Below are positions 17,594 through 47,562 of a stretch of 64,000 bases of DNA, in pieces. This stretch comes from Dehalococcoidia bacterium (GTDB lineage: Bacteria; Chloroflexota; Dehalococcoidia; GIF9; UBA5629), in the NCBI GenBank assembly GCA_050011565.1, contig JBEKIW010000003.1:192001-256000 (forward strand), written 5' to 3'. The position numbers and the translations under genes were made by a program. Positions within the stretch are counted from its first letter, which is position 1. The number at the start of each line of letters is the position of its first letter. The notes beneath the pieces are model-generated. The model searched no databases. It saw nothing but the letters and a program-made list of their open reading frames with translations, and was not told the origin of the DNA.

Positions 17594-18793
17594 TCAGGTG
17601 GCTCCGAGGATGAGTTTGTGCTGGTAGCGGGCTTGCTTGGGGCTATACTCGAACCGAATCCCGACCACTCTGAACTTGACGGCTGACTGGTTGGCTCCGG
17701 AATCCGATATTTGCACCACATCGAAAAGCTCCTGGCCACAGTTCGGCGGTATGAGTATGACCCCCCTCTTTCCCATAAGCCTTATTTTGGAGAGGACGGC
17801 TGAGGCTACATCTGCTGCCTGAGCGGTGGTGGGGATGGCAGGGTCTGGCTGGAAGTCCAACCTCTCTCCCACCAGTCCTATCTCGGTTGAGTCCTGGGCT
17901 TCTCCCCATACCGGGTTGCCATACCGGTCTCTGCCTATAACGAACATTCTGTTCTTTTCTGGCGTCTCGGTGGCATAATTTCCGTCAAGTATGACATGCC
18001 AGACATACTTGAGGAGGGTAGGTGTGCCGATGGCTACCGGCTGGATGGTGCTCTGCGGTTTGATTAAGCCAAGGATGCCGACCCACGGCATGCCAACAGA
18101 TATAGACTGAATGATGCTTGATGGAGATATGGTCTGGCGGTAACGAAGTGATGGCGTACCAATGGCTACGACCTGGAGAATGCTTGACGGCTGGATGATA
18201 AGAGCTGAGGTCAGGACCGTGGGCGTGCCGTAGACCAACGCCTGCAGTATGCTTGATGGCTTAATGGAGAGGTTTAGCTTGGGCGAGCCATAGCTTACGA
18301 GCTGGCTGATGCTTGACGGGGTGAGGACAAGGATGCCATAGGCTGAGTAGGATATGTATATGCCAGAGTAATCGGTCCAAGACATATCACCGCCGTTTTC
18401 AGGCAGGCCTTCAGCAAAGGTTTTTGTGTAGCTGAATTTGTATGATCTTCCCACCTCATTGTCGTATTTTACTGTGTTAGCAGCACTTTGTAGTACAACT
18501 AACCAATAAAGAGTGTTATTGGTTACCTCGCATTCTGCAGAAAGGTCGATGTCATTCCATTGCCCGCCGATGACGGGTGTGCTGGCATTCTGAACTCCGA
18601 TGCGTGTCCCAGGAAGACCGGCTGCGTCGGTATAAATGCCGACTTTTGCATTGGTGTTGGCGGCCGCATAAAAGCGAATCTTCTGGACTTTACCTGTCCC
18701 GGTGGCAGCCCAGCGGGTGGCAGCGGTGTGATTAACACCGCCGCCGGTCAATGTCCCAACGGAGTCAGTTCCAACTAGTTTACCTGTCGCCAT
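17594..18793 (-). CDS. Phage-type tail/baseplate-associated protein: beta-rich N-domain, five ~21-aa IxPSSIxQ..GTP repeats, hub-like C-domain
   Basis: Repeats are visible in the translation; C-terminus PPNCGQELFDVVQISD...RVVGIRFEY resembles the end of phage tail proteins. Confidence 0.65.
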   Translation of the reverse strand: MATGKLVGTDSVGTLTGGGVNHTAATRWAATGTGKVQKIRFYAAANTNAKVGIYTDAAGLPGTRIGVQNASTPVIGGQWNDIDLSAECEVTNNTLYWLVVLQSAANTVKYDNEVGRSYKFSYTKTFAEGLPENGGDMSWTDYSGIYISYSAYGILVLTPSSISQLVSYGSPKLNLSIKPSSILQALVYGTPTVLTSALIIQPSSILQVVAIGTPSLRYRQTISPSSIIQSISVGMPWVGILGLIKPQSTIQPVAIGTPTLLKYVWHVILDGNYATETPEKNRMFVIGRDRYGNPVWGEAQDSTEIGLVGERLDFQPDPAIPTTAQAADVASAVLSKIRLMGKRGVILIPPNCGQELFDVVQISDSGANQSAVKFRVVGIRFEYSPKQARYQHKLILGAT

Positions 18794-18825
18794 GTTTCAC
18801 CATTGATTACAGCGATTCACCGGGG

Positions 18826-19236
18826 CTAAGAGAGGCGGAAGATTTTGTCGGCACCGCTGGGCCACTGGATGGTGATGTCCGAGCCGTTGGGCGTGCAGGG
18901 CAGGCCGGTAGCCGTGTCAATGAGCAATATTAGCCGACTGGTACCCTCTACCCCGGTGTGCTTGTAGAGCGCCAGATATTCGAACTGGTCTCCTGAGACG
19001 CTAGCTACTACGATATCATCGGCATCGAAGACGCCGTCGGTGACGGTCTTGCTCTGCAGCGCGCCGGTGACGGCTACCCTGGCTGCTGAGGGGATATCGT
19101 CGAGGTTATCGTGAGTTGACAGGTTGGGGGTGTAGTCAGCGCCGTCCACCAGCACGACTCTGATATCGTCCGTGTCCAGGTCGATGCTGCCGTCTATGAG
19201 ACCCTGCTTGGCTTTGGTATAGAGTGCGTTGGCCAT
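18826..19236 (-). CDS. Phage-type minor tail/structural protein
   Basis: IDLDTDDIRVVLVD...VFDADD...LILLID...PNGSDITIQW pattern typical of small phage tail proteins; GGAGG RBS. Confidence 0.72.
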   Translation of the reverse strand: MANALYTKAKQGLIDGSIDLDTDDIRVVLVDGADYTPNLSTHDNLDDIPSAARVAVTGALQSKTVTDGVFDADDIVVASVSGDQFEYLALYKHTGVEGTSRLILLIDTATGLPCTPNGSDITIQWPSGADKIFRLS

Positions 19237-19276
19237 GATTGTCCTTTAAACCTCCTTCCTTTTTTTAGTAATACAT

Positions 19277-19436
19277 TTTGTAATGTAGTTTATTGACCTC
19301 ACCCCCTTTGTCCCCCTCTCCTACCCCATATCCCAGTGGGAATAAATCCTCACTGGATGCCTACCCACCCTGCCTCCCGAGGAGAGGGGGAATGATTTTT
19401 TATTAAGAGGGGCTGTGCCCCTCTTAAACTCCCCTT
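19277..19436. repeat. Intergenic multi-hairpin repeat (CCCCTCTCC...GGAGAGGGG type)
   Basis: ccccctctcc/ggagaggggg, ccagtg/cactgg and ttaagagggg/cccctcttaa inverted repeats; short relative near 25104-25143. Confidence 0.6.
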
Positions 19437-21244
19437 TATGCTGGGAACTTGTATTTGTAGACAATCGTGTCTCCTGCCTGGGGGTAGACGATATAGCCGT
19501 CCAGGCCGAAGAAGTAGATTACATCTGGCACCAGGTTAAGAAGCCTTTTGAGCACGCCGGCTGCCGACTCGCCGGCACCGACTTCGAGCCTGGGGTACAA
19601 ACTGGTAATCAAGCTACTCCGGGACTTATAATCCAGCGTGCCCCCTATCGCCTGTACTACCTTTTCCATTAACTGGTAGCAGGTTAAATCATCGGAGCTA
19701 ATATTCCACTCCGCGGGCTTGTTGAACTGGTAACAAGAAAGCAACCCCCAGGCGTCCACACAGTGAATGATAAAGCTGGCAACATTGGGGTCTCTTTTGT
19801 ACTCCATAGCCTCTACGAAATACCTGGCTGCCTCTGAGAGCTGGTCACCTGAGGTAGTCTTATAACCGACAAAAAGATTAACCCGGGCGCCGCGCTTCAT
19901 AACGGCCAATGAACCTGAGCCCGGGCTGTTATAAGTGCCCCTGGAATTATCCAGCTCCACCACCAGCTCAGAGGGCTGGCTAGGATCTACCGCCTCAATT
20001 ATCCTGGCTATTTTGGAGACCGGGATGGTAATTTTGTCGCCGGCGCCACTTCCTGGGGTGGGGGGACTCCAGGCGCCAGGGCAAAGGGCGCGCCAGACCT
20101 CGGTCGGCTGCGTTGCCCAGATGTATTCTCCGTTGGGGTCGGCGGCTAAAGCCATGCCTCGAGAAGCTAAAGTATCAACGAAGCTGGCTTTATTCCAGTT
20201 GTAGTCGTAGAAATCCGTGCCCGGCTTAAGCCTGAATATCCAGGGCTGATTTTGGCGGGCTAGAGATAATAGGGGGCGTGAGCAAGATGTAGCCGGCTTT
20301 AACAGGTAGGGACCTGAGACATCCAGCGTCTCACCGGCCAGGGCTTCAACTACCGCCTGATGCCTCTCCCAGTACGTGGAAGCAGTCCGTGGCTCCCAGG
20401 GACCGAAGGGCTGCAACCTGCGAAAGCCTACAGGCCAGCCGACCTCGAACTGCCTTAACCTCACCTGGGCGGCAACATCTACCCTGGCCCTGCCTAAACC
20501 TATTTTGGCATCCGTGGCCCAGGTGCCGGCTGAAACCTTATAGCCGTCTCCGTAAACCATGCGGACCACAGAAATATAGCTGCCTTCCTGGACCAGGGCG
20601 ATGATGTTCCAGTCGCCATCATAGTACATGGCTAAATCTTCAATCTCCCGGTCTCCCGAGCGCTGGCCGAGGCCGGTGCTCCAGCTCCCCCCTGTCCTCT
20701 TTTGAATATACAGACTGGTGGGGTCATTGATATCAGAAGCGTGGACGATAGCACAATCGCCATTGGGCTTGTAGGCTATGGCGGCACCTCTTTCGCAGGG
20801 GCGGGCATTCATCATAGCCGTCCAGCTCCCCCAGGTGGCACCGTAGTCCGATGACTGCCGGCGATAGAGATTAGCGGCATCCATGGAGGCCACCATGACC
20901 TCTGCGCCTTGAGAGGCAATGGCGACCCTGGCATAGGCAGGGACACCGCCGAAGGAGCTACCCCACTGGGAAAAACCTGAGCTCGGGCCCGGGCTGGTGA
21001 CACGGGAGAGAAAGAGACTGGTGCCATCTTTGCGGACCCGAATCAATGAGCCGTCACCGGGAATGGTCAAACCGTGGGAATCATTGACCTCACCTCCCTG
21101 ATAAAAGCGCTGCCAGCCCAAGGCTTCCCACTGAAGGCTCGAGGACTGCTGGGGATGGCCGTAAGCCTGCACCTCGAGCTTGACCAGCGGCTTCCTGGTG
21201 GGCTTCCTCTGTTCTTCGAGCAGCGCGTCAGTTATGCTTCGCAT
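19436..21244 (-). CDS. Phage-like tail/baseplate-hub-type protein with beta-propeller/Asp-box region (true start MRSITDALL)
   Basis: ATG at 21244 with AAGGA RBS; SSDYGATW Asp-box; the 941-aa ORF call adds a spurious extension across the IS. Confidence 0.65.
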   Translation of the reverse strand: MRSITDALLEEQRKPTRKPLVKLEVQAYGHPQQSSSLQWEALGWQRFYQGGEVNDSHGLTIPGDGSLIRVRKDGTSLFLSRVTSPGPSSGFSQWGSSFGGVPAYARVAIASQGAEVMVASMDAANLYRRQSSDYGATWGSWTAMMNARPCERGAAIAYKPNGDCAIVHASDINDPTSLYIQKRTGGSWSTGLGQRSGDREIEDLAMYYDGDWNIIALVQEGSYISVVRMVYGDGYKVSAGTWATDAKIGLGRARVDVAAQVRLRQFEVGWPVGFRRLQPFGPWEPRTASTYWERHQAVVEALAGETLDVSGPYLLKPATSCSRPLLSLARQNQPWIFRLKPGTDFYDYNWNKASFVDTLASRGMALAADPNGEYIWATQPTEVWRALCPGAWSPPTPGSGAGDKITIPVSKIARIIEAVDPSQPSELVVELDNSRGTYNSPGSGSLAVMKRGARVNLFVGYKTTSGDQLSEAARYFVEAMEYKRDPNVASFIIHCVDAWGLLSCYQFNKPAEWNISSDDLTCYQLMEKVVQAIGGTLDYKSRSSLITSLYPRLEVGAGESAAGVLKRLLNLVPDVIYFFGLDGYIVYPQAGDTIVYKYKFPA

Positions 21245-21364
21245 GATAAAATCCTTAGGGTAGATTGGAGCAGACGCTCCGGGGTACCCCTTTATTAAAG
21301 GTAAGTATCCCTTGACAATATAAGCTCCTTGTGTTATGATGGTATTATAACAAGGAGAAAAGAA

Positions 21365-22321
21365 ATGACAGCCGTAAATAGAACTAACCCAATAAAGGCA
21401 AAATCTTCTGACTCTCAATATACACTCGTAGAGTTTATGGAGACATTCCCAACCGATGCCGCTTGTCTCGAATGGCTTTGGAAACGACGCTTTTCGAAAG
21501 ATGGCGAACATGCCCATTGCCCGAAGTGCAATAAGGTACGCTCTTTTAAGCGGTATCAATCGCATCAACTGAAAGTCTCTTGGACTTGCGTCGCTTGTGG
21601 TTATCATATTCACCCGTTGGCTAGAACTATCTTCGAGAAGTCCTCTACTTCCCTGCGATTGTGGTTCTATGCCATGTACCTGATGGTGAGCACTAAATGC
21701 GGTATTTCCGCCAAACAACTGGAGCGAGAACTTGGGGTTACATACAAAACAGCTTGGCGTATGGCCTATTTGATAAGGAAATACCTTATGGAACAAACAG
21801 GCGAATTGCTTGGCAGGAATGAGGGTGTTGAACTGGACGAGACATTTATTGGCGGGAAAGCCCATAATATGCACAAGGCCAAACGTGCCCGTCTTGGCGG
21901 ACGTGGAACTGCCGGTAAGGTTCCTGTATTTGGTGCAGTCGAACGGCATGGTAGAGTTGTGGCAGTCACTGTCCCTAACGTAGATAGAGTTACACTCCTG
22001 CCACAAGTCATAAGGCATGTTATTCCAGCGTCCACCGTTTATACCGACGAAATGGGTGCTTATGACCCGCTGACCGAGAATGGATATAACCATAAAAAAA
22101 TCAACCACATGGAAAAAGTCTATGTGAGCGGGGATGTCCATACAAACACAATTGAGGGCTTCTGGTCGCTCGTAAAGCGAGGCATTGGGGGTGTCTATCA
22201 CGCAGTGTCCGCTAAACATCTTCAAGGCTACCTGAATGAATATGCTTGGCGGTATAATCACCGCGACGATGAGAGGGCGCAGTTTGAGACGTTACTTCTT
22301 CGGGCGGCGGCTGGGAGCTAG
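21365..22321 (+). CDS. IS1595 family transposase
   Basis: Zn ribbon CPKC...CVAC, GISAKQLERELGVTYKTAW HTH, VELDET, VYTDE, HTNTIEGFWSLVKRG. Confidence 0.96.
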   Translation: MTAVNRTNPIKAKSSDSQYTLVEFMETFPTDAACLEWLWKRRFSKDGEHAHCPKCNKVRSFKRYQSHQLKVSWTCVACGYHIHPLARTIFEKSSTSLRLWFYAMYLMVSTKCGISAKQLERELGVTYKTAWRMAYLIRKYLMEQTGELLGRNEGVELDETFIGGKAHNMHKAKRARLGGRGTAGKVPVFGAVERHGRVVAVTVPNVDRVTLLPQVIRHVIPASTVYTDEMGAYDPLTENGYNHKKINHMEKVYVSGDVHTNTIEGFWSLVKRGIGGVYHAVSAKHLQGYLNEYAWRYNHRDDERAQFETLLLRAAAGS

Positions 22322-22435
22322 TGGTTTGATTGGCTTTGCCGCCTTTTCGAGTACGTCTAACACGTCCTTGCGTTTCGGGATTGGTATCTCGAAATCTTTC
22401 GGGGTTTTTTGTGTCTTCATTTTCTTGCCTTCCAT
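22292..22435 (-). CDS. Small basic protein inside IS1595 (KTPKDFEIPIPKRKD)
   Basis: 47-aa ORF convergent with and overlapping the transposase end; extended -10 (TGcTATACT) just upstream; alternative start at 22420. Confidence 0.5.
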   Translation of the reverse strand: MEGKKMKTQKTPKDFEIPIPKRKDVLDVLEKAAKPIKPLAPSRRPKK

Positions 22436-22454
22436 AGTTAGAGTATAGCATATC

Positions 22455-23318
22455 ATGAACGACTGGTGGCTCAAGTTCCAACGGGCTGAGAAGCACATGG
22501 TAGACATCAATCAAGAAGCCATGAGGTACGCAAGCAGCAATCCTTACAGTTTTACTCGTATTCGGTTGCCTAACAGCAAGAATGAAATCAGGGGACGCTT
22601 CCATATCACTGAGCAACCTAATCCCATGATTGCTGTTATGCTCGGTGATTTCATACATAACTTGCGAAGTGCACTTGATTACATCGTTGTTGCCTGTGTT
22701 CCCAAACAACATCGGAAGCACGCGAGTTTCCCAATCCTGTATCAAGACATCTTCGCCAAGGGTAAGGACGGACAATTCGTGGTCAATGATGCCCAATTGC
22801 GGGATAACTTTGAGACCGCCACCAAAGGGCTTCATCCGAGAGCTAAAGCATTCATCATATCTCTGCAACCTTATCAAGCGGTGATTCTTGGGCTTCCGCC
22901 AGATAATTCTCTCGGAGTTCTCAACCGCCTCGAAAACGCAGACAAGCACCGTCAACTTATTACCGTTGGTTGTGGCGGGCAAGAAGGTATTCTTAGTTTT
23001 ACTGTACGTGGTTTCACTGAATCTATTACATATCACCAAAGGTTGGGCGTCGGTACTCAATTTCTCAAAGATGATACAGTAATCCCGTTCGTTCTTCATC
23101 CTGATTTCAATAGAATTCGCCATCCCGATGGGTCGTTTGTCCAGCCATCCGATATGGAGATGCATCTCAGCACTACCGCTAAGATATTGGTCAAGGTACC
23201 CAGGATAGGAGGGAATCAGTCTGCCTATAACATGTTGATTGATGACATCATATCTACCTCCCTCTTTGACGTGAACGGCATTCTCAAGCGATTGGAATTC
23301 TTTGTTTGCAATACCTAA
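22455..23318 (+). CDS. IS passenger protein, putative HEPN-like domain
   Basis: LKFQRAEKH...GDFIHNLRSALDY...LNRLENADKHR pattern; lies entirely between the TIRs. Confidence 0.6.
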   Translation: MNDWWLKFQRAEKHMVDINQEAMRYASSNPYSFTRIRLPNSKNEIRGRFHITEQPNPMIAVMLGDFIHNLRSALDYIVVACVPKQHRKHASFPILYQDIFAKGKDGQFVVNDAQLRDNFETATKGLHPRAKAFIISLQPYQAVILGLPPDNSLGVLNRLENADKHRQLITVGCGGQEGILSFTVRGFTESITYHQRLGVGTQFLKDDTVIPFVLHPDFNRIRHPDGSFVQPSDMEMHLSTTAKILVKVPRIGGNQSAYNMLIDDIISTSLFDVNGILKRLEFFVCNT

Positions 23319-23370
23319 TCGTTTATTCAATTTTCCCCCTTTATATCGAGATGGGATAGGTACCTTTATT

Positions 23371-23438
23371 AAATGTAGCCTCGACCTTTCAAGGTCGAGG
23401 TCGCGGGGTTAAAACCCCGCGGCTGCATGCTTAACAAA
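23371..23438. repeat. GTAG-type REP-like double hairpin, copy 1
   Basis: 60/68 identical to 32889-32956, with compensatory stem changes. Confidence 0.85.
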
Positions 23439-23570
23439 CTCTCCGCTATTCGCAGGCTGGACGTCGCATAAGAAATTTTTCTAAATTTTTTCAAAATAGT
23501 ACTATTTTCCCCTTGAAATTGGCCTGGCTTACTGTTATTATTCGTATACTCCTTGTGGGGGAGGAGTAAG

Positions 23571-23696
23571 ATGCTTAATAGAAATCTGATAATGGGCCTC
23601 ATTACCCTCGGAGTCTTGCTGGTGATATTGGTATATATAGCCATTACGCCATCCCCCTTTGGTAATTTACCTTCGATCATAATCCCGCAAGGCTAA
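23571..23696 (+). CDS. Small single-TM protein (41 aa, MLNRNLIMGLITLGVLLVILVYIAITPSPFGNLPSIIIPQG)
   Basis: GGAGGAG RBS, TTGAAA-17-TATTAT promoter, hydrophobic helix; below the ORF-track cutoff. Confidence 0.6.
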   Translation: MLNRNLIMGLITLGVLLVILVYIAITPSPFGNLPSIIIPQG

Positions 23697-23789
23697 AGCC
23701 CCATCTACACACCTGCTGCGGGAGCACTTGCTCCCGGCTATCCCCATCAGTCTCTATTAATTTCAATCGGTCTCCATCAATCTCTAACA

Positions 23790-24512
23790 TCAATTGAAAC
23801 TATTCGATAGCAGCTGCCCTGCCAGAGTTCCCACTCCATACAGCGTCCTGTTGAACGGCGCCAGCCTGGACTGCCAGTCGATTTTGGAACCGGCCAGCTC
23901 AGACAGGCTGTTGGCAGCCCTGACGGTAGTGTTGAAGTCCCGGTTAAAGACATAGTACTCGGGACTGCGGCCGCACTCTCCTTTCTTTTTCTCGGTCTGC
24001 TCCTTAATCCAGTCCTTGGCATCTACCGCCAGGTCGACCAGGTAATTCCAGTAGTCCACGGCCTGTGAGATGTGCTGGCAATCCGTCACCGAGCCTTTAT
24101 CCCGCGCCTTATAGAATATGGTGCACGGGTTCACCTCGGTATAGGTCTCCTTGACGGTAGCCATAACGCTCTCGTGGAACGCCTTGGGGTCAAAGGCGTG
24201 AATTCCAAGAGTTACTTGAGTTCCTTGAGTTTCTGGTGTTCCTTGAGTTTCTTGAGCTAAAGGGGCCGGCGCGCCGTTAGAAACAGTAGCCACCTGTGCC
24301 TCGGCGGTTTTGGTTTTCTCCTTCTCGGCGTCAATTTTGCCCTGAGTCAGTATATAGAAGACTCCGGCTGCGGCTGCTGCCAGGGATGGGACCATGTCCA
24401 TAAAGGTCTTCTGCGCCTCCGGCTCCTGGACGAAAAGCGGTATGATTGTGGCCAGCATAGTAATAATGAAGGCGCTGTACTTCTTTTTGCCATCTAAAAA
24501 CTTTTGTATCAT
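23790..24512 (-). CDS. Holin-like two-TM N-terminus fused to a soluble helical domain
   Basis: FLDGKKKYSAFII...YILTQGKID holin-like pattern; AGGAGG RBS; ETQGT repeat linker. Confidence 0.6.
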   Translation of the reverse strand: MIQKFLDGKKKYSAFIITMLATIIPLFVQEPEAQKTFMDMVPSLAAAAAGVFYILTQGKIDAEKEKTKTAEAQVATVSNGAPAPLAQETQGTPETQGTQVTLGIHAFDPKAFHESVMATVKETYTEVNPCTIFYKARDKGSVTDCQHISQAVDYWNYLVDLAVDAKDWIKEQTEKKKGECGRSPEYYVFNRDFNTTVRAANSLSELAGSKIDWQSRLAPFNRTLYGVGTLAGQLLSNSFN

Positions 24513-24743
24513 TAATAATGTACCTCCTTTTATTTGGTTGCTGGGGGATGGGCATGAGCTCTGCTCATCCCTTTTTGTTTGGTTGTTGCGGGTGGGGTAT
24601 GAGCTTTAGCTCATCCCTTCATTTATTTATTATGATTACAGGATATTCCCTGTGGGTAGATTGGAGCATCCGCTCCAGGCATACCCTTTTTATTAAATGT
24701 CGCCTTTGTCTGCCGTTATATGTAGCCTTTGTCTGCCGTTATA

Positions 24744-24775
24744 TGTAGCCTCGACCTTAAAAGGTCGAGGCTACA
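24744..24775. repeat. REP-like hairpin, copy 2, preceded by a 23-bp tandem duplication (24698-24743)
   Basis: tgtagcctcgacctt-aa-aaggtcgaggctaca perfect stem. Confidence 0.85.
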
Positions 24776-25046
24776 CATGGTGCCTACTTTTCGTGTTCCG
24801 TAAGGCTCGCTGTACCGTCCTCCGGCTGACTCCGAAAAGCCCGGCTATTTCCTTGACGCTTTTACCCATCCGCCTCAAGTCCTCCATTCGCCTCTTCCGC
24901 GCCGCCATCCTCAACCGCTGCTGACCCCGGGGTTCGTCCTCAACACATTTGGGCAGCGGACAATTCAAACACGACGGAAAGAACTCGCAGCCCTGGTCCC
25001 GCCACTCAACCTCATCAGGCAATAAATCAAGTTCGCCGCCAATCAT
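24771..25046 (-). CDS. Small Cys4 plus helix-turn-helix protein (putative regulator of the phage-like module)
   Basis: C-x5-C-x2-C-x4-C followed by GKSVKEIAGLFGVSRRTVQR. Confidence 0.8.
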   Translation of the reverse strand: MIGGELDLLPDEVEWRDQGCEFFPSCLNCPLPKCVEDEPRGQQRLRMAARKRRMEDLRRMGKSVKEIAGLFGVSRRTVQRALRNTKSRHHV

Positions 25047-25055
25047 GATGACCCT

Positions 25056-25098
25056 ATACTAGCACTAATGTTCTATTTTCTCAAGATAATTTTGTCGC
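25056..25098 (-). promoter_or_regulatory. Sigma70-type promoter with overlapping LexA-like box (TAGAACATTAGTGCTA)
   Basis: Minus strand TTGAGA-17-TAGTAT with extended TG; GAAC-N4-GTGC in the spacer; near-identical copy at 47520-47562. Confidence 0.7.
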
Positions 25099-33152: not shown

Positions 33153-34358
33153 ATGATGAAACATAAATGGTATTTAACGCTTATCGCCATATCTCTCGCC
33201 GCCCTAATCGGCTCAATTACCGGCTGCATAACTATCGTCACACAGGAGCCGGCACCTGCCACGGAGCAGCCGGTATCTCCACCGACAATCAACTCCTTTA
33301 CCGCCAGCCCGACTAGCGTCAGTCAGGGGCAGCGTACTACGCTGAGCTGGGACGTTTCCGGTGCCGCCACGATTACCATACAGCCCGAAATCGGCACCGC
33401 AGGGCCTAGCGGCTCGCTACAGCTAACACCAAATGCTTCCGTCACCTATATGCTGACAGCTACCAATCAGGCCGGCAGCACCACCAGATCCGTCTCTGTA
33501 GCAGTCACGCCTGGCTTTGCCGGCAAGCCAGACCTGGTGATTACGGATATCTGGCTAAGTGGAAGCCAGGTCAATTATAAGATAGCCAACATCGGCAGCG
33601 GCGATGCCAAATCGAGCCAGTCCTATCTATACACAAATGACGTCAAGCAAGCCGATGACTGGGTGGAACCGCTGGCCGCGGGTGAGGAAAGAACCACGTC
33701 CTTTCCTAATTACGACTGGAAAATCGAGACGGGCGCCAACCCTGTCTCTGGAGATTTCTCCACACACTATGTTAAGGTCTGTGCCGATGCCGAAGATAGC
33801 ATTGAGGAAAGCGACAAGGGCAACAACTGCCTGACCAAAAACTGGGGGCAGACGTTTACCTACGACTTCGTGCAGAACGCACACCTGGCAGAATGGAGGA
33901 GCGGCGCCGCCGTAATCACCTGGCCTAAGTTTGCCGGCAATCAAGCGGGAGCCGCCTACTTAGAGGGCAATGCATTGATAATGTGCCCCGAGCAGGTTAG
34001 TAATGGCTGGATACAAGGCAGATTCGCCGATTTCTACTACGACCCCATCACCAAGACAACGCGCAGCAGCTTGCTTAAAGTGCCGGAGAATGCCAGGTTC
34101 ACTGCTCAAGTGGGCTTTAAAACGGGAGCCACATCCACCGACGGAGTAGTAATCGCCCTCGGTTACCTGGACGAAGCCGGCGGCATTGTGCTATTACCTA
34201 AGATTGAACTTTATCCAGGTGATAAATCACGGGCTTACACAATCGATTTAAGCAATCTGGCAGGTAAGCAAACCGAGTTCATACTTCGAGTAGAAGCCAA
34301 AGGTACCCCTGAGGGAGACTGCGTGCGTTGGGTGGAACCCAAGATAGTCCAGGAGTAG
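33153..34358 (+). CDS. CARDB/Ig-like domain lipoprotein, tandem paralog of 31545-32765
   Basis: Lipobox SITGC; colinear similarity (KPDLVITD, FTYDFV, CPEQVxNGWI); GGAGG RBS. Confidence 0.8.
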   Translation: MMKHKWYLTLIAISLAALIGSITGCITIVTQEPAPATEQPVSPPTINSFTASPTSVSQGQRTTLSWDVSGAATITIQPEIGTAGPSGSLQLTPNASVTYMLTATNQAGSTTRSVSVAVTPGFAGKPDLVITDIWLSGSQVNYKIANIGSGDAKSSQSYLYTNDVKQADDWVEPLAAGEERTTSFPNYDWKIETGANPVSGDFSTHYVKVCADAEDSIEESDKGNNCLTKNWGQTFTYDFVQNAHLAEWRSGAAVITWPKFAGNQAGAAYLEGNALIMCPEQVSNGWIQGRFADFYYDPITKTTRSSLLKVPENARFTAQVGFKTGATSTDGVVIALGYLDEAGGIVLLPKIELYPGDKSRAYTIDLSNLAGKQTEFILRVEAKGTPEGDCVRWVEPKIVQE

Positions 34359-34695
34359 CGGATGTGGAACCAATCTTGTCCAGAGCAGCCAGTGTACTCG
34401 CGACCCTAAAAGGTCGCAATTAAAAATATCATTCAGAAGCTTTTTTTCTGCCATTTCCAAGAGCATCCCTTTTTCTGTCATTGCTGCAGTCTCTCCACCC
34501 CTCCTAGATTGCCACGCTTCGGTTGCAATCACCATCGAATGTAGGAATAGAACTTCAGGTCTGTCCGCCCCACAAATCACAAAACGCAGGCACCAGAGAC
34601 CAAATAAATTCAAAAACACACTAATTAAAAACTAGGTAGTGTATCATTTTCAAATCTGGTATAATATAGTGCAAATCGATAGAGGTAGATATAAA

Positions 34696-34851
34696 GTGAA
34701 AATACCGAAACAAAGCGACGGGAATCCCGCCAGACCGGTTCGTGTTAAAAATGGTTTAGGACTTCGGCCAAATAAATCAGGCAAAGGGGCGATGGTTGTA
34801 CCTCCGAAACGCATACCTCTTCCGAAGTTCAGCCCACCTAAAAATAGTTAA
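34696..34851 (+). CDS. Small basic Pro/Lys-rich peptide inside the IS end
   Basis: GAGGT RBS, GTG start, TATAAT upstream; convergent with the transposase. Confidence 0.35.
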   Translation: MKIPKQSDGNPARPVRVKNGLGLRPNKSGKGAMVVPPKRIPLPKFSPPKNS

Positions 34852-35684
34852 TTTACCAGTCTGACTAGTTCATCAATTCCCCAAACATGGTCAGTTAATC
34901 CTGCTGCCATTGCCGGAGTTCTCGGATAAGGATAAGCCAGTGTCTTATGCGGTCTAGCGAAGTTATAATGCATAAAATATAAAGCTAGAGCGTATACATG
35001 GTTTTCCAGTTTCTTAGAAAAAGCATTTGTTAGCCTAGTAAATCTTCTCATGCTCATTCTCATTGTTAGATTCTGACGCTCTGCAAAACTAGTAGATATT
35101 TGGGCGGGGTCGGGATTCCCCTGAATAACTTGTTTTTCTGCCGCAATGCAAGCAGCGGGGCCATAGCGTTTTTCAGTTTCTGACTCAAGCCCATAGAGTT
35201 TAATTAGCATTGCATAATCCACCTCAGAGCCAAAGGCATCCTCAATAGCCCACAAGTAGACCTTGTGACCGTCTGTGGTAATTTGAACACGATTAGCTAG
35301 TCTGTTTTTTAGGTCATTCATAAACGGATAAGCATAACTAGCATCCCTCAATCCCACCAGCCAGCAGGGTACTAGCTTTGTGTCTGCGTCTATGGCTGTC
35401 CACGTCCATACATCGCCATACCCGAATTCGCCATTATGTTCTTCCGGCACATTTTTGTCTTTTGAATAAACAAAGCTCCATATTTCGTCACATTGTATGT
35501 GCGTACATGGTAAGTCATGCATTACCTTGTCCTGATATTCCAGGCAGGCTGCACCGACCTCTCTGAGCAATTTGACGACTGTATTGATGGCAGTGTCAGT
35601 TATACGGGCGGTACTGCGTATCGAGTTGCCTTCACAGAGTACCTTGATAACTTGAGCTTTGCGTTCTATACTGAGCTTATTCAT
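34848..35684 (-). CDS. IS1-family DDE transposase
   Basis: EGNSIRSTAR HTH, QCDEIWSFV, ITTDGH, STSFAERQNLTMR, RRFTRLTNAFSKK. Confidence 0.93.
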   Translation of the reverse strand: MNKLSIERKAQVIKVLCEGNSIRSTARITDTAINTVVKLLREVGAACLEYQDKVMHDLPCTHIQCDEIWSFVYSKDKNVPEEHNGEFGYGDVWTWTAIDADTKLVPCWLVGLRDASYAYPFMNDLKNRLANRVQITTDGHKVYLWAIEDAFGSEVDYAMLIKLYGLESETEKRYGPAACIAAEKQVIQGNPDPAQISTSFAERQNLTMRMSMRRFTRLTNAFSKKLENHVYALALYFMHYNFARPHKTLAYPYPRTPAMAAGLTDHVWGIDELVRLVN

Positions 35685-35808
35685 TATTGTATTTCCTATT
35701 CCTAATTGACTATATTATAACACATCGCTTAAGCATTGTCAATAGGAATATAACAATAATGTTATTATACAATAACATTTGACAAAATAACAATATTGTG
35801 ATAGCATA

Positions 35809-36225
35809 ATGCCGCAAGCTAAGATAACTCCTAAATGGACATTTTTGGATTATGTTGATAGGACTGGTGTTAACAGGATTAGCGAATGGCTACAGTCAAT
35901 CCCAATTGATGCACGAGTGGAATTCGAGGTGTTGCTTGATATGTTGAGGGGTAAATGTATATTAACTAGACCTGAGACCGGAAAGCTGTATAAGGCACTT
36001 GATGGACTCTACGAATTCGTTTTCAAAGTTAGCAACGTACAATATCGTCCGATATTTTGTTATGGGCCAGACACTAAAGCACGGGAAATCACTATACTGG
36101 TTGGTGCAACAAAGAAGAACAACCGATTTATCCCAGCCGGTGTAGGTATTACAGCAATGTCTAGGGCAAAAGAAATTTGGGCTGGAGACAGAAAGAAGGT
36201 GGTACGCCATGTACGAATCAGCTGA
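35809..36225 (+). CDS. RelE/HigB (Gp49-like) type II toxin
   Basis: EWLQSI...LDGLYEF...VQYRPIFCY...ILVGATKK; TTGACA-17-TAGCAT promoter directly before the ATG. Confidence 0.78.
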   Translation: MPQAKITPKWTFLDYVDRTGVNRISEWLQSIPIDARVEFEVLLDMLRGKCILTRPETGKLYKALDGLYEFVFKVSNVQYRPIFCYGPDTKAREITILVGATKKNNRFIPAGVGITAMSRAKEIWAGDRKKVVRHVRIS

Positions 36226-36715
36226 AGAAAAAGAATTATCCGATTACTTGAGCAATCCTGAAGTCCGCCATCTATATATTGATAGCAGCATTCGTCATTT
36301 GCTTGCTATGCAGTTAAGGTCGATGCGAGAGACTAAGGAATGGTCACAAATTGAAGTCGGTAATAAAGCTGGTATGAAACAATCCGCTATCGCCCGTCTA
36401 GAAGACCCAAGATACAGCAGCATGACGTTATCCACTCTCAAACGATTAGCCAAGGCTTTTGATGTTGCTCTCATAGTTCGCTTTGCGCCCTTCAGTGAAT
36501 TCATCTCTTGGACTACACAAATAGCTGAACCACGCCTATCTCCACCTAGTTTTAGCGAAGAACGGAATTATGCCTTGGCATTGGTTTCGGCGGCTGTGGA
36601 TGCAAATAGCATTTTCAATTTTAGTATGCCAACGGCAAGTACATACGCATGCCCCGCAAGGACTGAAAAGGAGAAGGAGTTCGCTTATGCAGGAAGAATT
36701 TCGTCAACGTCTTGA
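36209..36715 (+). CDS. XRE-HTH antitoxin (HigA-like) with long C-terminal extension
   Basis: QLRSMRETKEWSQIEVGNKAGMKQSAIARLE...TLKRLAKAFD; overlaps the toxin stop. Confidence 0.85.
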   Translation: MYESAEEKELSDYLSNPEVRHLYIDSSIRHLLAMQLRSMRETKEWSQIEVGNKAGMKQSAIARLEDPRYSSMTLSTLKRLAKAFDVALIVRFAPFSEFISWTTQIAEPRLSPPSFSEERNYALALVSAAVDANSIFNFSMPTASTYACPARTEKEKEFAYAGRISSTS

Positions 36716-37115
36716 AAAGGAATATCGCTATGCTGTAACCAAAATGCAGGAGGTAACTCAGTTAGCAAGTAAACTGTTCTATTTTAGTGTCTTTTTTGGA
36801 GAGGCACAGCGTGTACTTAATTGGGAATGGAACACTGACCTCGCACTCATACATATGGTTACTAAGCAAGTTTATACGGAAATCAATACCACGATACAAA
36901 TGTCTGGACCTGGGCAAACGCCCCCTATTGATTGGACAACCGTTTCTGATAAATTGACCCAAGTTGCCTCTGACCTTGCCACTCACTTTGAGAGGGCAGA
37001 GAATGAGGGTAGTAAAGAAGAACTGCACCGAATATTAGGGCACTTCGCTGAAGTCGCCTATGCCGTTTCAGGGAACGGTAGTTATTTGTATGAGAAAGGG
37101 TCTTTTAAGCTTTAG
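36687..37115 (+). CDS. Hypothetical helical protein, third gene of the TA operon
   Basis: AAGGAG RBS, ATG at 36687 overlapping the antitoxin 3' end; 142 aa. Confidence 0.7.
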   Translation: MQEEFRQRLEKEYRYAVTKMQEVTQLASKLFYFSVFFGEAQRVLNWEWNTDLALIHMVTKQVYTEINTTIQMSGPGQTPPIDWTTVSDKLTQVASDLATHFERAENEGSKEELHRILGHFAEVAYAVSGNGSYLYEKGSFKL

Positions 37116-40333: not shown

Positions 40334-41011
40334 ATGCGACTCTTTCTAGATACAGCTAATATCGAACATATCCGGCACGGCGTCAGGCTCGGAGTAATTA
40401 CCGGCGTGACCACAAATCCAAGCCTGATATCAAAAGAGGGCAAGGTGGATTTTAAACACCATGTCCGGGAAATCTGCTCTATTGTTCCCGGGCCGGTATC
40501 AACCGAGGTGCTGAGCCAGAATGCAGCAGATATGGTCCGTGAAGCTAAAGAGGTTGCCTCTTGGGCAAAAAATGTGGTCGTAAAAATACCAGCCAGCTTA
40601 GATGGGGTGGAAGCTACGTACCAGCTTGCCAGAGCGGGTGTGAAAGTGAATTTCACCCTGTGCTTTTCCGTAAATCAAGCTCTGCTCGCTGCCATAGCCG
40701 GTGCTACCTTTGTAAGTCCTTTCGTGGGCAGGCTTGATGACATCGGTGAAAACGGCATGAGGCTGGTTAAAGAGATTGTCGAGGTCTACAAAAATTATCC
40801 TGATTCCATTAAGACACAGGTGCTCGCCGCCAGTATCAGGCATCCGCAGCACTGCATCGAGGCAGCCACGGCTGGCGCCCACATAGCCAGCGTCCCATAT
40901 CAGGTATTGATGCAGATGATTCAACATCCTTTGACCGATATCGGCATCAAACGGTTTCTGGAAGACTGGCACAAAGTAATGGGTACCGGTACCGAAGGTG
41001 CTAGGCGTTAA
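40334..41011 (+). CDS. Transaldolase / fructose-6-phosphate aldolase family protein
   Basis: [33 protein letters not shown]. Confidence 0.93.
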
Positions 41012-41047
41012 AATACTAATTATTACTTTACATGAGAGGGTACTAAC

Positions 41048-42310: not shown

Positions 42311-42406
42311 GAGGACAGCCATCTGCCATAACCCTGGGCCCAGGCTCTCTATTGACTTTAATCCATTTCGTGTTATGATAGCAGACAAAATGGCTTGGAG
42401 GAAGCA

Positions 42407-44194: not shown

Positions 44195-44277
44195 AGGCCG
44201 TAAACTTGACAATCTGAGACTAATAGCATAATATGAAACAAATTAACCAATATGTTAACACAAAGTAAGGAGGTATC

Positions 44278-45459
44278 ATGAGACTATTGGTTATCGGATT
44301 AGGGCAATGTGGCTCCCGAGTCGCCGATCAGTTTGTCCGTTTAAATAAGCGGGCAGCAGCGCAGTGGGGCATCAATATAGTCACGGGAACCTTTGCCGTA
44401 AATACGGACCAAACCGACCTGACTGGTTTAACTCATATAGGCACCGATTTTATGCATCGCATCCTCATCGGCGGTCGTAAGACCTGGGGACATGGTGTGG
44501 GCAAGATAAACGAGATGGGCGCCGAGTTAGCCAGAGAGGACGGTGACAAGGTAGTTGATGCCATCAGAACTGCACCCAATTTTTACCAGACCCATGCTTT
44601 CATGCTTATCGCTGGGGCGGCCGGTGGTACCGGCTCGGGTGCCATATCGGTAATCGCCCAAATGCTTAAAGAACGATACGTTGGCAAGCCGGTCTACGCC
44701 CTGGTGGTTCTTCCCTTCGAACACGAGGAAATGGCGGAGCTAAGAAGCGTTTACAATACCGCGACTTGTCTAAAGTCAATACAGTCGGTAGCCGATGGCG
44801 TCTTTCTGGCAGATAATCAACGCTATGTTAGAAAGGACGCCAGCCTGGCAATGAACCTGGATAGAATAAACTCAACCATTGCCGAACCTTTTTACGATAT
44901 GATGTGTGCCGGCGAGATAACTAGATTTAAATACGTCGGTGCTAAAGTGCTGGATGCCGGTGATATAATGCAGTCCATAGACGGCTGGACGGCAATAGGG
45001 GTTGGCCGAACCAGCATACCGCGTGCCTTCCGCTTTCCCTGGGAACTGAACAAGGTCAGCTTCAAGGAGAAGAGCGATGAGAGTCTAAGGGCTATGCAGG
45101 CTATGGACGCCGCCTTCAGTGAGCTTTCCGTCGGCTGCAGCCCCGAGGATGCCGGCAGAGCCTTATATCTGCTCTCGGCACCGGCGAAGGACATGTCTAT
45201 GGACATCGCCAAAGGTTTAGGCGACTATCTCAGAGAACTCGCAGAAAATGCAGTAATCAGAGCCGGCGACTTCCCCAGAGGTGGGGTAACCGTCGACGTC
45301 ACCGTAATACTTTCTCAGCTAGCCTTCGTCCAGAAGATAAGAGACTACTACGACAGAGCTACAGCCTTTGCTCAGACCCAGAAGGAGCGGATAAAGGAGA
45401 CAACGGGCAGGCTCCGTGACATGGAAGAAGCCGCTAAGGGATTGCCCAGCTTAATCTAG
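44278..45459 (+). CDS. Tubulin/FtsZ superfamily protein, CetZ-like (intact GTP motifs)
   Basis: GLGQCG, AVNTD, GHGVG, GAAGGTGSG, VLPF, DN, VLDAGD; TTGACA promoter and AGGAGG RBS. Confidence 0.9.
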   Translation: MRLLVIGLGQCGSRVADQFVRLNKRAAAQWGINIVTGTFAVNTDQTDLTGLTHIGTDFMHRILIGGRKTWGHGVGKINEMGAELAREDGDKVVDAIRTAPNFYQTHAFMLIAGAAGGTGSGAISVIAQMLKERYVGKPVYALVVLPFEHEEMAELRSVYNTATCLKSIQSVADGVFLADNQRYVRKDASLAMNLDRINSTIAEPFYDMMCAGEITRFKYVGAKVLDAGDIMQSIDGWTAIGVGRTSIPRAFRFPWELNKVSFKEKSDESLRAMQAMDAAFSELSVGCSPEDAGRALYLLSAPAKDMSMDIAKGLGDYLRELAENAVIRAGDFPRGGVTVDVTVILSQLAFVQKIRDYYDRATAFAQTQKERIKETTGRLRDMEEAAKGLPSLI

Positions 45460-45488
45460 CCATATCAAATATTATTCTGACAAAACAT

Positions 45489-45520
45489 AAGGGGAGGGAT
45501 AAACCCTCCCCTTTATTATT
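45489..45520 (+). terminator. Rho-independent terminator
   Basis: aaggggaggg-ataaa-ccctcccctt followed by a T-rich tract. Confidence 0.8.
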
Positions 45521-45560
45521 TAAGAAGGTCCGTCCCTACTTTTTTATATTCTGGCCCCTC

Positions 45561-45626
45561 CTTACGCTCATTCCGAGCTTCCTTTACGCATATTCCGGTC
45601 TTTCTTTACGCTCATTCTGAGCTTGT
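45561..45626. repeat. Three degenerate 22-bp tandem repeats
   Basis: cttacgctcattccgagcttcc / tttacgcatattccggtctttc / tttacgctcattctgagcttgt. Confidence 0.7.
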
Positions 45627-45657
45627 CGAAGAATCCGCAGGGAAACGTCTACTTTCC

Positions 45658-47064
45658 TCAGTCAGATAATAGCCCTCTAGCCTTTCGTGGCATCCACTTA
45701 TTGGCCGCTTGAACCACCATAGCCAGGCTCATCAGATAATCATCATGACCATCACTGCTATCGACAAAGAAGTTCAATGTCTGGCTGGGTCTGTATATGC
45801 TCTTAGCTTTCTGAAGCTCAAACATCAACTCCCTATAATCTTCGGAGTCGTCCTGTTGGTAAAGCTTGAGCCTGCCGGAGTTTACAGCCGCCAATAAATC
45901 GAAGCCCGCTTCAGACTTCGTCTTTTGAGTAAATTTAAAGGGGATAACTTTACCGCCCAATGATTTACGTAAGAAGCTGGTTACGGGCTCACCAATGCCC
46001 GTGGCGTCGGCGACAATTCGGCTGCATCTCCATAAGTTTTTCAGTATGTCCACCATCTGAGGGTATAGTTCAGCATGCTTCTTGCCCACCCAGCTATAGT
46101 TCTCAACTACATGTACTCTGGGCTCCCTGGCCGGTATGTCCATACCATCATATGTAACCTCAGCAATGGTTATGACGGTGGCGTCTCTGCCCGAGCGGGT
46201 CAGAATATCATCTTCGAGCTGCTCCGACTCGCCGGCGAAATCTATGCCGGCTACGTAGACCCTGCCTTCCTGCAGGCGGCTAAGTCTGAGATGTTCGCCC
46301 CTTAGTTGGGCGATTTGCTGGTTGGTCAGGAAACCACCTCCGCCTCGAATTGGCAGTAGAGCATATTGAGTCCGGAACAGAGGATGGTCTTCGCCGAGAC
46401 GCTGCCGTTCGGACTCAATAAAGGATTTGTAACTTGGATTATATTTGGCTACTTCCTGCCAGTCATAACGGAAATGGCGCTTAATACCATCCTTCTTCTC
46501 CAGCTCCAGGTTAGTCTGCTTTACCTCTTCCAGCAAGGTAGTATCGTCCCAGGTTGTGCCATAGTGAACAGTGGTGGCATTTGAAGCTGATACCATGGGC
46601 CGGAATTCTTTGGTATATTTATCCTTAGCTACGTCCTGGGATTCGTCTATCTCTAGCAGTATGTCGGCGGTATGCCCCACTACCGAAGCTGATTCGTCAG
46701 CGGAAAGAAATATCTGTCTGGCATTGCCCAGCCTGACCATATAGCCAGCCTCGGTAAACCAGATGCCGCCGAAACCGAAATCGTTTAGCCTGTCCTTGAG
46801 CCGGCTAATGGAGATAATTGTCTGCGGTTTGAACGTTGGGGAACACTTGATGGCATTGCCGCCGGCAGCCATGAACATTGTCAGCAGTAAAACTTCGAGA
46901 TGTACCGAAAGCTCATTCTTACCACCCTGGCGGGCGATTTCGACCGAAAAGGTCAAACCTAAATTACCCTGAATGCTCTCGATGATGGCTTTGGACGCTT
47001 CAGCTTGATAGGGCGCAATTTCATTTCGAAAAATAAAAGGAAAAGGGAACTCGAGGAAAAACAA
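45658..47064 (-). CDS. Phage terminase large subunit-like protein (5' end uncertain; possible frameshift)
   Basis: PYQ motif, Walker A ARQGGKN, Walker B LEIDESQ, YGTT, nuclease AGIDFAG, DATGIG, HDDYLMSLA. Confidence 0.85.
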   Translation of the reverse strand: MFFLEFPFPFIFRNEIAPYQAEASKAIIESIQGNLGLTFSVEIARQGGKNELSVHLEVLLLTMFMAAGGNAIKCSPTFKPQTIISISRLKDRLNDFGFGGIWFTEAGYMVRLGNARQIFLSADESASVVGHTADILLEIDESQDVAKDKYTKEFRPMVSASNATTVHYGTTWDDTTLLEEVKQTNLELEKKDGIKRHFRYDWQEVAKYNPSYKSFIESERQRLGEDHPLFRTQYALLPIRGGGGFLTNQQIAQLRGEHLRLSRLQEGRVYVAGIDFAGESEQLEDDILTRSGRDATVITIAEVTYDGMDIPAREPRVHVVENYSWVGKKHAELYPQMVDILKNLWRCSRIVADATGIGEPVTSFLRKSLGGKVIPFKFTQKTKSEAGFDLLAAVNSGRLKLYQQDDSEDYRELMFELQKAKSIYRPSQTLNFFVDSSDGHDDYLMSLAMVVQAANKWMPRKARGLLSD

Positions 47065-47089
47065 AACCGGCGGTCTCTTATTGAAACCT

Positions 47090-47419
47090 TTAGCTTCTTA
47101 TCAGCGTCTTAACACCCAGGGGAATAGCTATCTCAGTTAATACTTTGGTGATAGCCTCCTTAAGAGACTTCTTCTGTTCCTTGCTGATGTTATAGCGGGT
47201 TGTTACCAGCCGGGCAATAGTGGTAGCCAATCTCAGATGCAGGTCAAATTTCTCCGGCGCGGCGACAATAAGCTCCCTGAGCTTAACGCGAAGTATGGCA
47301 ATCTCCTCGTCAATACCCTCTATGCCCCTAGCTTCTTCAAGCTCCAGCCTCTCGGCTTCATTAAGTGCCTGTCCGTAAAATACCTGTCTTTTGCTTTTTG
47401 CGGCGTTCTTTCTTACCAT
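47090..47419 (-). CDS. Putative terminase small subunit-like helical protein
   Basis: RKNAAK..FYGQAL..GIDEEIAILRVKLRELI; immediately upstream of the large subunit. Confidence 0.6.
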   Translation of the reverse strand: MVRKNAAKSKRQVFYGQALNEAERLELEEARGIEGIDEEIAILRVKLRELIVAAPEKFDLHLRLATTIARLVTTRYNISKEQKKSLKEAITKVLTEIAIPLGVKTLIRS

Positions 47420-47510
47420 TTTCCATCGCCCTGATAATTCCATAGACCAAAGCATAAGCAGCCAGGTCATATCTCTGACTATCTAATGCAACCTTCAACA
47501 ACTTCGCCAT
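47361..47510 (-). CDS. Small hypothetical protein (49 aa), first gene of the terminase operon
   Basis: MAKLLKVALDSQRYDLAAYALVYGIIRAMENGKKERRKKQKTGILRTGT; ATG follows the -10 box by 9 nt, the same spacing as at 25046. Confidence 0.55.
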   Translation of the reverse strand: MAKLLKVALDSQRYDLAAYALVYGIIRAMENGKKERRKKQKTGILRTGT

Positions 47511-47519
47511 GTCATCATC

Positions 47520-47562
47520 ATAGTAGCACTATTGTTCTATTTTAACAAGCTTAACTTGTCAC
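47520..47562 (-). promoter_or_regulatory. Sigma70-type promoter with overlapping LexA-like box (TAGAACAATAGTGCTA)
   Basis: Minus strand TTGTTA-17-TACTAT with extended TG; 47524-47562 is 31/39 identical to 25060-25098. Confidence 0.7.

Follow-up and report, generated by a model that had tools for sequence, protein, structure and literature searches.

Two halves of one phage-type structural gene set in the chromosome of a Dehalococcoidia bacterium, probably a broken remnant of an element shared across its order

The systems closest to the locus described here are gene transfer agents (GTAs), the PBSX element of Bacillus and ordinary cryptic prophages. RcGTA, an agent of Alphaproteobacteria, is encoded by head, tail and terminase genes that sit in the chromosome at several loci without integration or replication genes, and that have been inherited with the host over a high taxonomic rank under purifying selection. 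PBSX is a fixed, non-propagating and repressor-controlled phage-like element, conserved in its host group. In gene content and chromosomal setting both resemble, and in inheritance and control may resemble, what we found in a stretch of 64,000 nucleotides (nt) from a Dehalococcoidia bacterium (GenBank assembly GCA_050011565.1, contig JBEKIW010000003.1, positions 192,001 to 256,000), called the window below. Two blocks of phage-type genes lie there on the minus strand (17594-25046 and 45658-47510) around the host genes pyrG, tal and rho. The genome, G000, comprises 1,996,460 bp in 8 contigs and is 99.2% complete, and the window lies on contig C3.

The original prediction, drawn from the sequence letters, had located both blocks correctly and read them as a dispersed GTA-like system with its head genes elsewhere in the genome. 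The first part of this stands, as sequence comparison identifies the blocks as the halves of one phage-derived structural gene set, split and served by a shared promoter. The second part does not, as no such head genes were found elsewhere; in relatives they lie inside the first block, at a place that is deleted here. We conclude that the pair of blocks is probably the broken remnant, in G000, of a phage-derived set immobilised across the order, and that this set is plausibly GTA-like in the relatives that keep it intact.

The two blocks and their shared promoter

The block at 45658-47510 is a packaging operon:

47361-47510, minus strand: orfA (p49), opens the packaging operon and encodes a small helical protein; conserved in relatives
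47090-47419, minus strand: orfB, about 109 amino acids (aa), with its real start at a conserved Met, residue 18 of a 126-aa open reading frame (ORF)
45658-47064, minus strand: terL, large terminase, its frame open from an upstream TTG at 47064

TerL carries the motifs RQGGKNE (Walker A), LLEIDE (Walker B), AGxDxAG, DATGIG and GHDD, all invariant across 13 homologues; the Walker and nuclease labels are our own reading of the alignment. With the Walker A and B motifs of an ATPase and the Asp residues of an RNase H-like nuclease, the protein is by its motifs a large terminase. The family matches are weak (Terminase_6C 1.3e-4, 22.4 bits against a cut-off of 22.6; PHROG TerL 5e-6, four families). 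The genes orfA and orfB overlap in different frames (+1) and both are conserved in relatives. A programmed frameshift fusing the two was rejected, because all relatives read have a Met conserved 15-25 residues before the GFY..ALxEAE motif of orfB, and we therefore treat them as two overlapping genes. By position alone orfB is a candidate for the small terminase subunit; it has no match in Pfam, PHROG or PADLOC models.

The other block holds a candidate regulator and the tail genes:

24771-25046, minus strand: hth91, Cys-rich N-terminus and C-terminal helix-turn-helix (HTH_23, E 2.3e-7)
23790-24512, minus strand: p240, two hydrophobic segments, directly upstream of the hub gene p602
19436-21244, minus strand: p602, tail hub protein with an N-terminal beta-propeller and a C-terminal hub domain resembling gp27, Mu gp44 and VgrG
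18826-19236, minus strand: p136, virion tail accessory protein (phrog_644, E 5e-42)
17594-18793, minus strand: p399, fibre-like, with a variable N-terminal part containing PSSI(L/I)Q..GTP repeats and a conserved C-terminal domain (residues 266-398)

The tail label that the block had received was supported by p136, which matches PDB 9d93 'Tail wing arm, gp31' (E 1e-18), and by the predicted fold of p602. A fold search with the whole p602 protein gave generic beta-propeller matches alone, and the hub domain was seen after the C-terminus (residues 305-602, 298 aa) had been folded separately. In this model the predicted local distance difference test (pLDDT) score is 70-84 over model residues 100-285 (the last ~190), and Foldseek returned 38 PDB structure matches at E <= 0.001. 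These include the Algoriphagus extracellular contractile injection system (eCIS), E217, P1 and Mu gp44, at E 2e-7 to 5e-6, as well as VgrG and the type VI secretion system (T6SS). The modelled C-terminus of p602 is a phage baseplate hub fold. Searched against PDB sequences, p602 and p399 had no usable match.

We compared the locus with that of 40 relatives from 22 genera and 5 families, f1, f2, f3 and f4 being those named here. Homologues of hth91, the candidate regulator on sequence grounds, are the first gene of the structural operon in relatives. Those of p240 in family f1 are 27-80% identical; the protein matched no Pfam or PHROG family and may be holin-like, or a short tape-measure or ejection protein. 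The fibre-like p399 has a weak PHROG 'tail protein' match (0.0049); in families f2 and f4 its C-terminal domain and the hub form one fused protein. Its N-terminal domain (residues 27-113) has three paralogues, 36-41% identical, in host genes at C1:600655-607095.

That the blocks belong together is apparent from viral contigs. IMG/VR holds 193 contigs with this TerL, and in the 80 kept loci whose order was read they form one continuous row. Portal comes directly after terL in 70 of these; in 5 it is hth that does so, with or without portal behind it. The order in most of them is orfA-orfB-terL-(hth)-portal-scaffold-MCP-adaptor-p142-hub-fibre (MCP, major capsid protein), and the host genes of the split layout occur in none of the 80. 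One contig, L151, is 18,400 nt long with a 62-nt exact terminal repeat, and in addition to the structural row it encodes a DNA methylase, an HNH nuclease and a tyrosine integrase. From its sequence it is most likely a complete small temperate phage. Its row has the same 13 genes, including homologues of p240, p136 and p399, and its TerL is 71% identical to that of the window.

Each block is preceded by one copy of nearly the same promoter:

47520-47543, minus strand: P1, upstream of orfA; -35 TTGTTA, 17-nt spacer, -10 TACTAT with TG before it
25056-25079, minus strand: P2, upstream of hth91; -35 TTGAGA, 17-nt spacer, -10 TAGTAT; operator TAGAACATTAGTGCTA at 25060-25075

The two 24-mers are identical at 22 of 24 positions, and allowing up to 4 mismatches on both strands of the whole genome we found just these two sites, which upholds the earlier remark on near-identical promoters. 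The spacer of P1 contains the imperfect palindrome TAGAAC-N4-GTGCTA (47524-47539), with GACAA about 12 nt upstream of the -35. The form common to such promoters is -35 TTGnnn, a 17-nt spacer holding the palindrome, TG-n-TAnnAT, and GACAA upstream. It recurs in front of both operons in relatives of every family read. A regular expression of this form fits 13 of 16 regions upstream of orfA homologues, the other 3 being a one-letter variant or having the palindrome flipped. Upstream of hth homologues it fits 8 of 13; 2 more are variants or cut by extraction, 1 is a duplicate cut at the locus edge, and 2 show nothing. The 16-nt operator core with up to 2 mismatches has two extra sites in the genome, both before unrelated genes. 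C1:508400, C4:144956 and C6:82831, considered as further operator sites, were rejected for the same kind of position. In the contiguous copies L174 and L176, hth stands between terL and portal with the same promoter in front of it. L151 lacks an hth gene and has no TAGAAC-N4-GTGCTA operator before orfA, so the twin promoter was not simply copied from that phage.

The LexA protein of Dehalococcoides binds GAAC-N4-GTTC. There are two LexA-like genes in G000, and the promoter upstream of one of them (C1:685206) has three AAC-N4-GTT boxes; upstream of recA in this genome we found no such box. The operator of the element has one AAC-N4-GTT-like half-site, and its other half (GTGC) overlaps the TG of the extended -10. 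Hypothetically, judging by these boxes, LexA might regulate the element. The promoter at C1:685206 also has GACAAAA in its spacer, a partial echo of the element's promoter.

Missing head genes and other lesions in G000

The same-genus relative G009 (locus L058), our reference for what is missing, has five genes between hth and p240: a portal gene (469 aa; SPP1_portal 3e-28, phrog_64 7e-38), a scaffold-like protein gene (166 aa), an HK97-fold MCP gene (306 aa; phrog_212 2e-61, Phage_capsid 2.5e-10, SU10_MCP), a gene for an SU10_adaptor-like protein, and p142. This head-gene row, portal-scaffold-MCP-adaptor-p142, stands inside block 1 in families f1, f2 and f4. In the window its place is taken by a scar, and an insertion sequence (IS) lies further along the block:

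24514-24804, no strand: deletion scar, ~290 nt replacing 4.56 kb of G009 (blastn against L058)
21291-23373, plus strand: IS1595-family element, 2.08 kb with 33-nt inverted repeats, between p240 and p602

A hairpin repeat of ~30 nt, a GC-rich stem around TTTTAA, follows genes at 23376, 24746-24775, 27130, 31169 and 32894; the copy at 24746-24775 lies in the scar, directly after hth91. Its half-site has 13 matches in the genome, 6 of them in the window.

The lost genes were not found elsewhere in G000. Searches with 17 proteins of G009 and G040 (tblastn) revealed no portal, scaffold, MCP, adaptor, p142/p114, p115, p145 or p212, and a portal profile gave 0 candidates. PF04860, PF05133 and phrog_212 had 0 matches as well; the phrog_212 blank is weak because that model was silent in every control genome too. 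The sole PF05065 capsid gene of G000 (C1:724945-725790, 5e-46) was rejected as the missing head gene, as it is of another family (phrog_10) and sits in a separate integrase/replication element with no operator motif. That element (C1 ~720000-731000, loci L141 and L142) has a tyrosine integrase, a replication initiator, an Arc-like protein, the HK97 capsid, a tape-measure-like protein and a serine recombinase. A portal gene did not turn up in it, and it may be a satellite-like element or another remnant.

The IS1595 element consists of a transposase gene (21329-22321; DDE_Tnp_IS1595, 1.9e-45) and a passenger ORF, p287 (22455-23318, 287 aa). It is the single copy in G000 and has no counterpart at the G009 locus. 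An ORF of 941 aa (19436-22261) was rejected as a real gene and is an artefact, because its frame runs through the insertion into p602, the true start of which is at 21244. The contiguous IMG/VR copy L143 also has an IS1595-type transposase gene (~9642) between p240 and the hub gene. PADLOC defence models had no meaningful match among p287, p240, orfA, orfB, hth91, p278 and terL.

The third lesion is at the start of terL. In the loci of 27 relatives this start always reads ATG-xxx-xxx-xGx-CCN-TAY-CAR. In the window one C is absent from the run 47011-47013 (codon 5), and the conserved ATG at 47022-47024 is out of frame. Among contigs of public sequencing runs aligned here, those of X3 (100% identity) share the 1-nt deletion. 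In those of X4 and X5 (~98.7% identity) one more G after plus-strand position 47010 puts the ATG back in frame. This pattern makes a genuine frameshift of very recent date probable. X3 belongs to another study than the possible source samples but was taken from the same habitat type, and its agreement gives weak independent support for the deletion.

The earlier statement that the window has no integrase, att pair, portal or capsid gene agrees with our searches of C3, of the flanks and of the genome. PF00589 integrases are missing from C3, all 10 matches in the genome being on C1, C4, C6 and C8; the window has no tRNA genes, and the flanks of the blocks have neither a shared 12-mer nor an att-like repeat. 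G000 does not hold a complete head, portal, terminase and tail set as a GTA would. It shows what is typical of a defective prophage: the 4.56-kb deletion, the IS1595 insertion, the terL start frameshift and no integrase. A candidate GTA cannot work in this genome because its head genes are gone. The loss of genes is plain from the comparison with G009; that the copy was recently inactivated and can no longer make particles is what we infer from it.

Distribution, selection and decay in relatives

terL was found in 36 of the 40 relatives, in 5 families, with 63-90% identity. Beyond these, we searched 200 other genomes spread evenly over the class Dehalococcoidia, and the TerL profile (E <= 1e-10) hit 136 of them; counted by genus it hit 96 of 143, the window's own included. 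A scan of species representatives yielded 301 terL loci, and the best 80 of them all bear Dehalococcoidia or Chloroflexota metagenome-assembled genome (MAG) titles save for one Anaerolineae. In family f24, genomes G060, G098, G140, G157, G173 and G206 have 3-8 terL matches each, the element being multi-copy there. In family f50 the single-contig genomes G136 and G153 have terL together with a portal gene of full length.

The chromosomal place is shared. The order pyrG-tal-rho-TIG-cetZ / terL-orfB-orfA / TPR-hydrolase-mgsA-cetZ2 is kept, whole or in part, in families f1, f2, f3 and f4; cetZ faces terL in 12 of the 16 flanking regions fetched and in 40 of the best 80 species-representative loci. 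In G005, G019 and G024 (f1), G025 and G029 (f2), and G035 and G040 (f4), terL and the block from hth and portal to the fibre gene share a contig, 9-26 kb apart, and that block has response-regulator, meaB and p467 genes on its far side as in the window. At least 3 families thus have the set split by host genes and lacking an integrase, and the whole spans 20-38 kb in relatives. Full sets are uninterrupted in G009, G025, G027, G029, G038 and G040.

The original prediction could also be checked by synteny, phylogeny and the ratio of nonsynonymous to synonymous divergence (dN/dS), where a shared locus, congruence with host families and ratios of about 0.1 speak for it, and interleaving phage copies, described below, speak against it. 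A TerL tree of 17 genomes recovers f1, f2 and f4 with 3 label changes, the minimum, a value that 0 of 200 shuffles reached. Pairwise TerL identity correlates with that of cetZ (r 0.83, 120 pairs) and rho (r 0.85, 45 pairs), about as well as cetZ does with rho (r 0.91). The dN/dS values are 0.05-0.14 for terL, 0.11-0.14 for portal, 0.12-0.18 for MCP, 0.09-0.15 for p136 and 0.06-0.23 for hth91; for p602 they are 0.085-0.12 inside the genus and 0.22 in the comparison with G015, which belongs to a different one. Host genes gave ~0.02-0.04 in most pairs for cetZ and rho (cetZ 0.06 and 0.21 in two f4 pairs) and 0.04-0.10 for mgsA. All were measured at dS ~0.4-3, mostly near or above 1, and frames of 300-600 codons that are still open at such distances indicate purifying selection. 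Some 'stop' rows in these alignments run past gene ends and were not taken as pseudogenes.

The rest of the set is patchier than terL. Among the 40 relatives portal was found in 17, hth in 16, p602 in 17 and p136 in 7; 14 of the 16 with hth also hold portal. Broken genes are frequent: p602 is split in G005, MCP, adaptor and p602 in G024, and terL, MCP and hub genes in G035. G036 is without scaffold, MCP and adaptor, G008 is without hth through MCP, and in G019 2.3 kb are inserted between MCP and adaptor. Extra copies lie on other contigs in G010 and G013. Of the 23 relatives without a portal match, 9 have a terL that is frameshifted, interrupted by stops, fragmentary or not found, versus 1 of the 17 portal-bearing ones, counts that come from related genomes, many of them incomplete; a full-length, stop-free terL is kept in nine portal-less relatives. 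Decay of terL after head loss fits a set whose parts would form one functional unit. The original prediction had itself named patchiness or decay among relatives and absent head genes as refuting it, and for G000 the GTA claim falls on these findings.

The stretch that separates the blocks has genes for Ig-like surface proteins (TIG, CARDB, Big_13), for a CetZ-type tubulin and for a Gp49/HTH pair. It also contains pyrG, tal (transaldolase) and rho, each of which occurs once in G000. Two CetZ-type tubulin genes (Tubulin + CetZ_C) flank the terL operon region, at 44278-45459 (plus strand) and ~50995-52071 (minus strand). They share 48% identity, keep their synteny throughout the order and rank with the best conserved genes of the region; CetZ is usually considered archaeal. 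At 35809-36715 a Gp49/HigB-like toxin gene overlaps an HTH_3/HTH_31 gene, likely a toxin-antitoxin pair. Around it, at ~34000-37000, GC drops to 0.42-0.43 from ~0.50 on either side.

Competing explanations and comparison with known systems

The following course of events would account for the locus. The free relatives would be small temperate Dehalococcoidia phages such as L151. An ancestral copy in the order would have lost its integration and replication genes, and the shared synteny suggests that it was split between terL and hth by 10-26 kb of host genes. Each half would have kept one copy of a sigma-70-type promoter in which the palindrome covers the spacer and the -10 region; as the same palindrome stands at both promoters, one repressor could switch both operons. 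The products of an intact set would include portal and terminase and would assemble into a small HK97-fold capsid bearing a short tail of hub and fibre. At 20-38 kb the element would be too long for such particles to hold, the phage genome being ~18 kb. In G000 the head-gene deletion, the IS1595 element between p240 and the hub gene and the displaced terL start would have ended its activity.

Several observations weigh against an old, resident and now dead element. In a tree of 170 TerLs, cetZ-flanked (split) and portal-flanked (contiguous) copies are strongly clustered (6 label changes versus a mean of 41 when shuffled), but the split copies do not form a single clade: phage-like copies of the contiguous kind fall among them, and the phage-like group L143-L151 is sister to the clade with the window's genus. 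An approximately unbiased (AU) test on 39 TerLs rejects a clade of split copies (log-likelihood difference 313, p 1e-5), a group that was named post hoc. A history of one event and purely vertical inheritance is therefore too simple. In the congeneric G040 and G035 (loci L043 and L046), dS is 0.74-0.79 for portal and MCP versus 0.19-0.20 for terL and cetZ; head genes being about fourfold more distant, the sequences suggest a replacement of the head module through recombination. The arrangement in G034 is different again: orfB, terL and portal are followed by host genes (kinase, response regulator, GGDEF), and these by scaffold, MCP and adaptor. The interleaved tree, the discordant dS and this layout together point to exchange between phage and resident genes or to repeated rearrangement. 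Regarding loss in relatives, many or most of the 40 genomes are incomplete MAGs, where 'not found' does not equal 'absent'. In G000 itself, the upstream in-frame TTG keeps terL open and some TerL might still be made. RNA run X20 has six short contigs at 90-95% identity over the terL region, which possible DNA carry-over keeps from being evidence of expression.

The strongest form of the GTA idea, a working agent in G000 whose head genes sit at a third locus under the same promoter, is hardly credible to us. It can appeal to the shared promoter and to a terL frame that is intact bar its start, with all catalytic motifs present. However, a genome that is 99.2% complete holds no head gene of the family, the promoter 24-mer occurs twice only and looser core sites precede unrelated genes, and the other capsid gene belongs to a separate integrase/replication element without the motif. 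Moreover, the head genes of relatives sit exactly at the scar in G000, and the IS1595 insertion and the terL start frameshift come on top. At the level of the lineage, intact split sets may package host DNA, either random or as headfuls from near terL, and be selected in the host, with G000 as one secondary loss. We regard this as a real possibility, albeit one that falls short of even odds. It would explain the order-wide synteny without integrase or replication genes, the essential single-copy host genes between the halves, the span larger than an ~18-kb phage genome, a dN/dS near 0.1, at saturating dS, in genes of all three kinds (head, tail, terminase), the conserved twin promoter/operator with six uninterrupted full sets, and terL decay mostly in portal-less genomes (9/23 versus 1/17, kin being non-independent). 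It sits less well with the patchy portal (17/40), hth (16/40) and p602 (17/40), with frameshifts or deletions in G005, G024, G035, G036 and G008, with the interleaving of TerL with phage copies, and with the discordant synonymous distances in one pair.

Alternatively, the element may be a grounded, long-lived cryptic prophage without host function, whose genes look selected through repeated exchange with related temperate phages of the same hosts. A real phage of the family exists in L151, contiguous copies are nested inside clades of split copies, head dS in G040 and G035 is four times that of terL and cetZ, extra copies occur in G010 and G013, and decay is frequent. We give it only slightly lower odds than the lineage-level GTA. 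Against it, the split layout and both promoters persist in 3 or more families, whose frames are still open at dS above 1, L151 has no operator upstream of orfA, and TerL identity tracks host genes as closely as host genes track each other. An independent role of orfA-orfB-terL, for example as a nuclease/ATPase acting on incoming or damaged DNA, would fit terL being found in 36/40 relatives versus 17/40 for portal and the nine portal-less relatives with a full-length, stop-free gene. We think it improbable: terL decay is concentrated in portal-less genomes (9/23 versus 1/17), PADLOC has no defence family that matches, and an operon of 2 kb takes longer to be struck than one of 10 kb.

A bolder version, which we put forward as speculation and would ourselves expect to fail, is an order-wide (Dehalococcoidales) system of two operons and one operator, derived from ~18-kb phages, whose intact sets move host DNA in small capsids. 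If true, it would be the first GTA of the phylum Chloroflexota and a route of gene exchange in a group with island-borne dehalogenase genes, for which Dehalococcoidales are known. Independently of this, an order of Dehalococcoidia, most of them uncultured, shares a single chromosomal position for a phage-derived structural gene set, which adjoins a live family of very small temperate phages without cultured members. Its mix of stable, domestication-like features and continuing phage exchange may make it a useful case for asking how GTAs arise. A search of the open-access and bioRxiv literature by titles and the beginnings of abstracts, subscription journals lying outside it, returned no report of such an element in Dehalococcoidia or Chloroflexota.

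Compared with the described systems, the locus differs from each in some respect. Its tail proteins match no RcGTA-specific Pfam family and its MCP and adaptor resemble SU10-type families; unlike RcGTA, its copies are patchy and interleaved with copies of live phages, and that of G000 has no heads. PBSX is contiguous with a contractile tail, whereas the set here is split by host genes and would have a short hub-and-fibre tail. L151 has the same 13-gene structural row, but is contiguous, has a terminal repeat, an integrase, an HNH nuclease and a methylase, and lacks hth. Among cultured GenBank phages 15 records match TerL, the best at 31% (Bacillus phage vB_BboS-125), and the best MCP match is 41% (Bacillus phage PK2); both proteins are recognisably of tailed-phage type, yet distant. 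G000 resembles a cryptic prophage in its virion-gene deletion, IS insertion, frameshift and lack of an integrase. Ordinary remnants, however, are strain- or species-specific, and this one occupies the same locus across an order under purifying selection.

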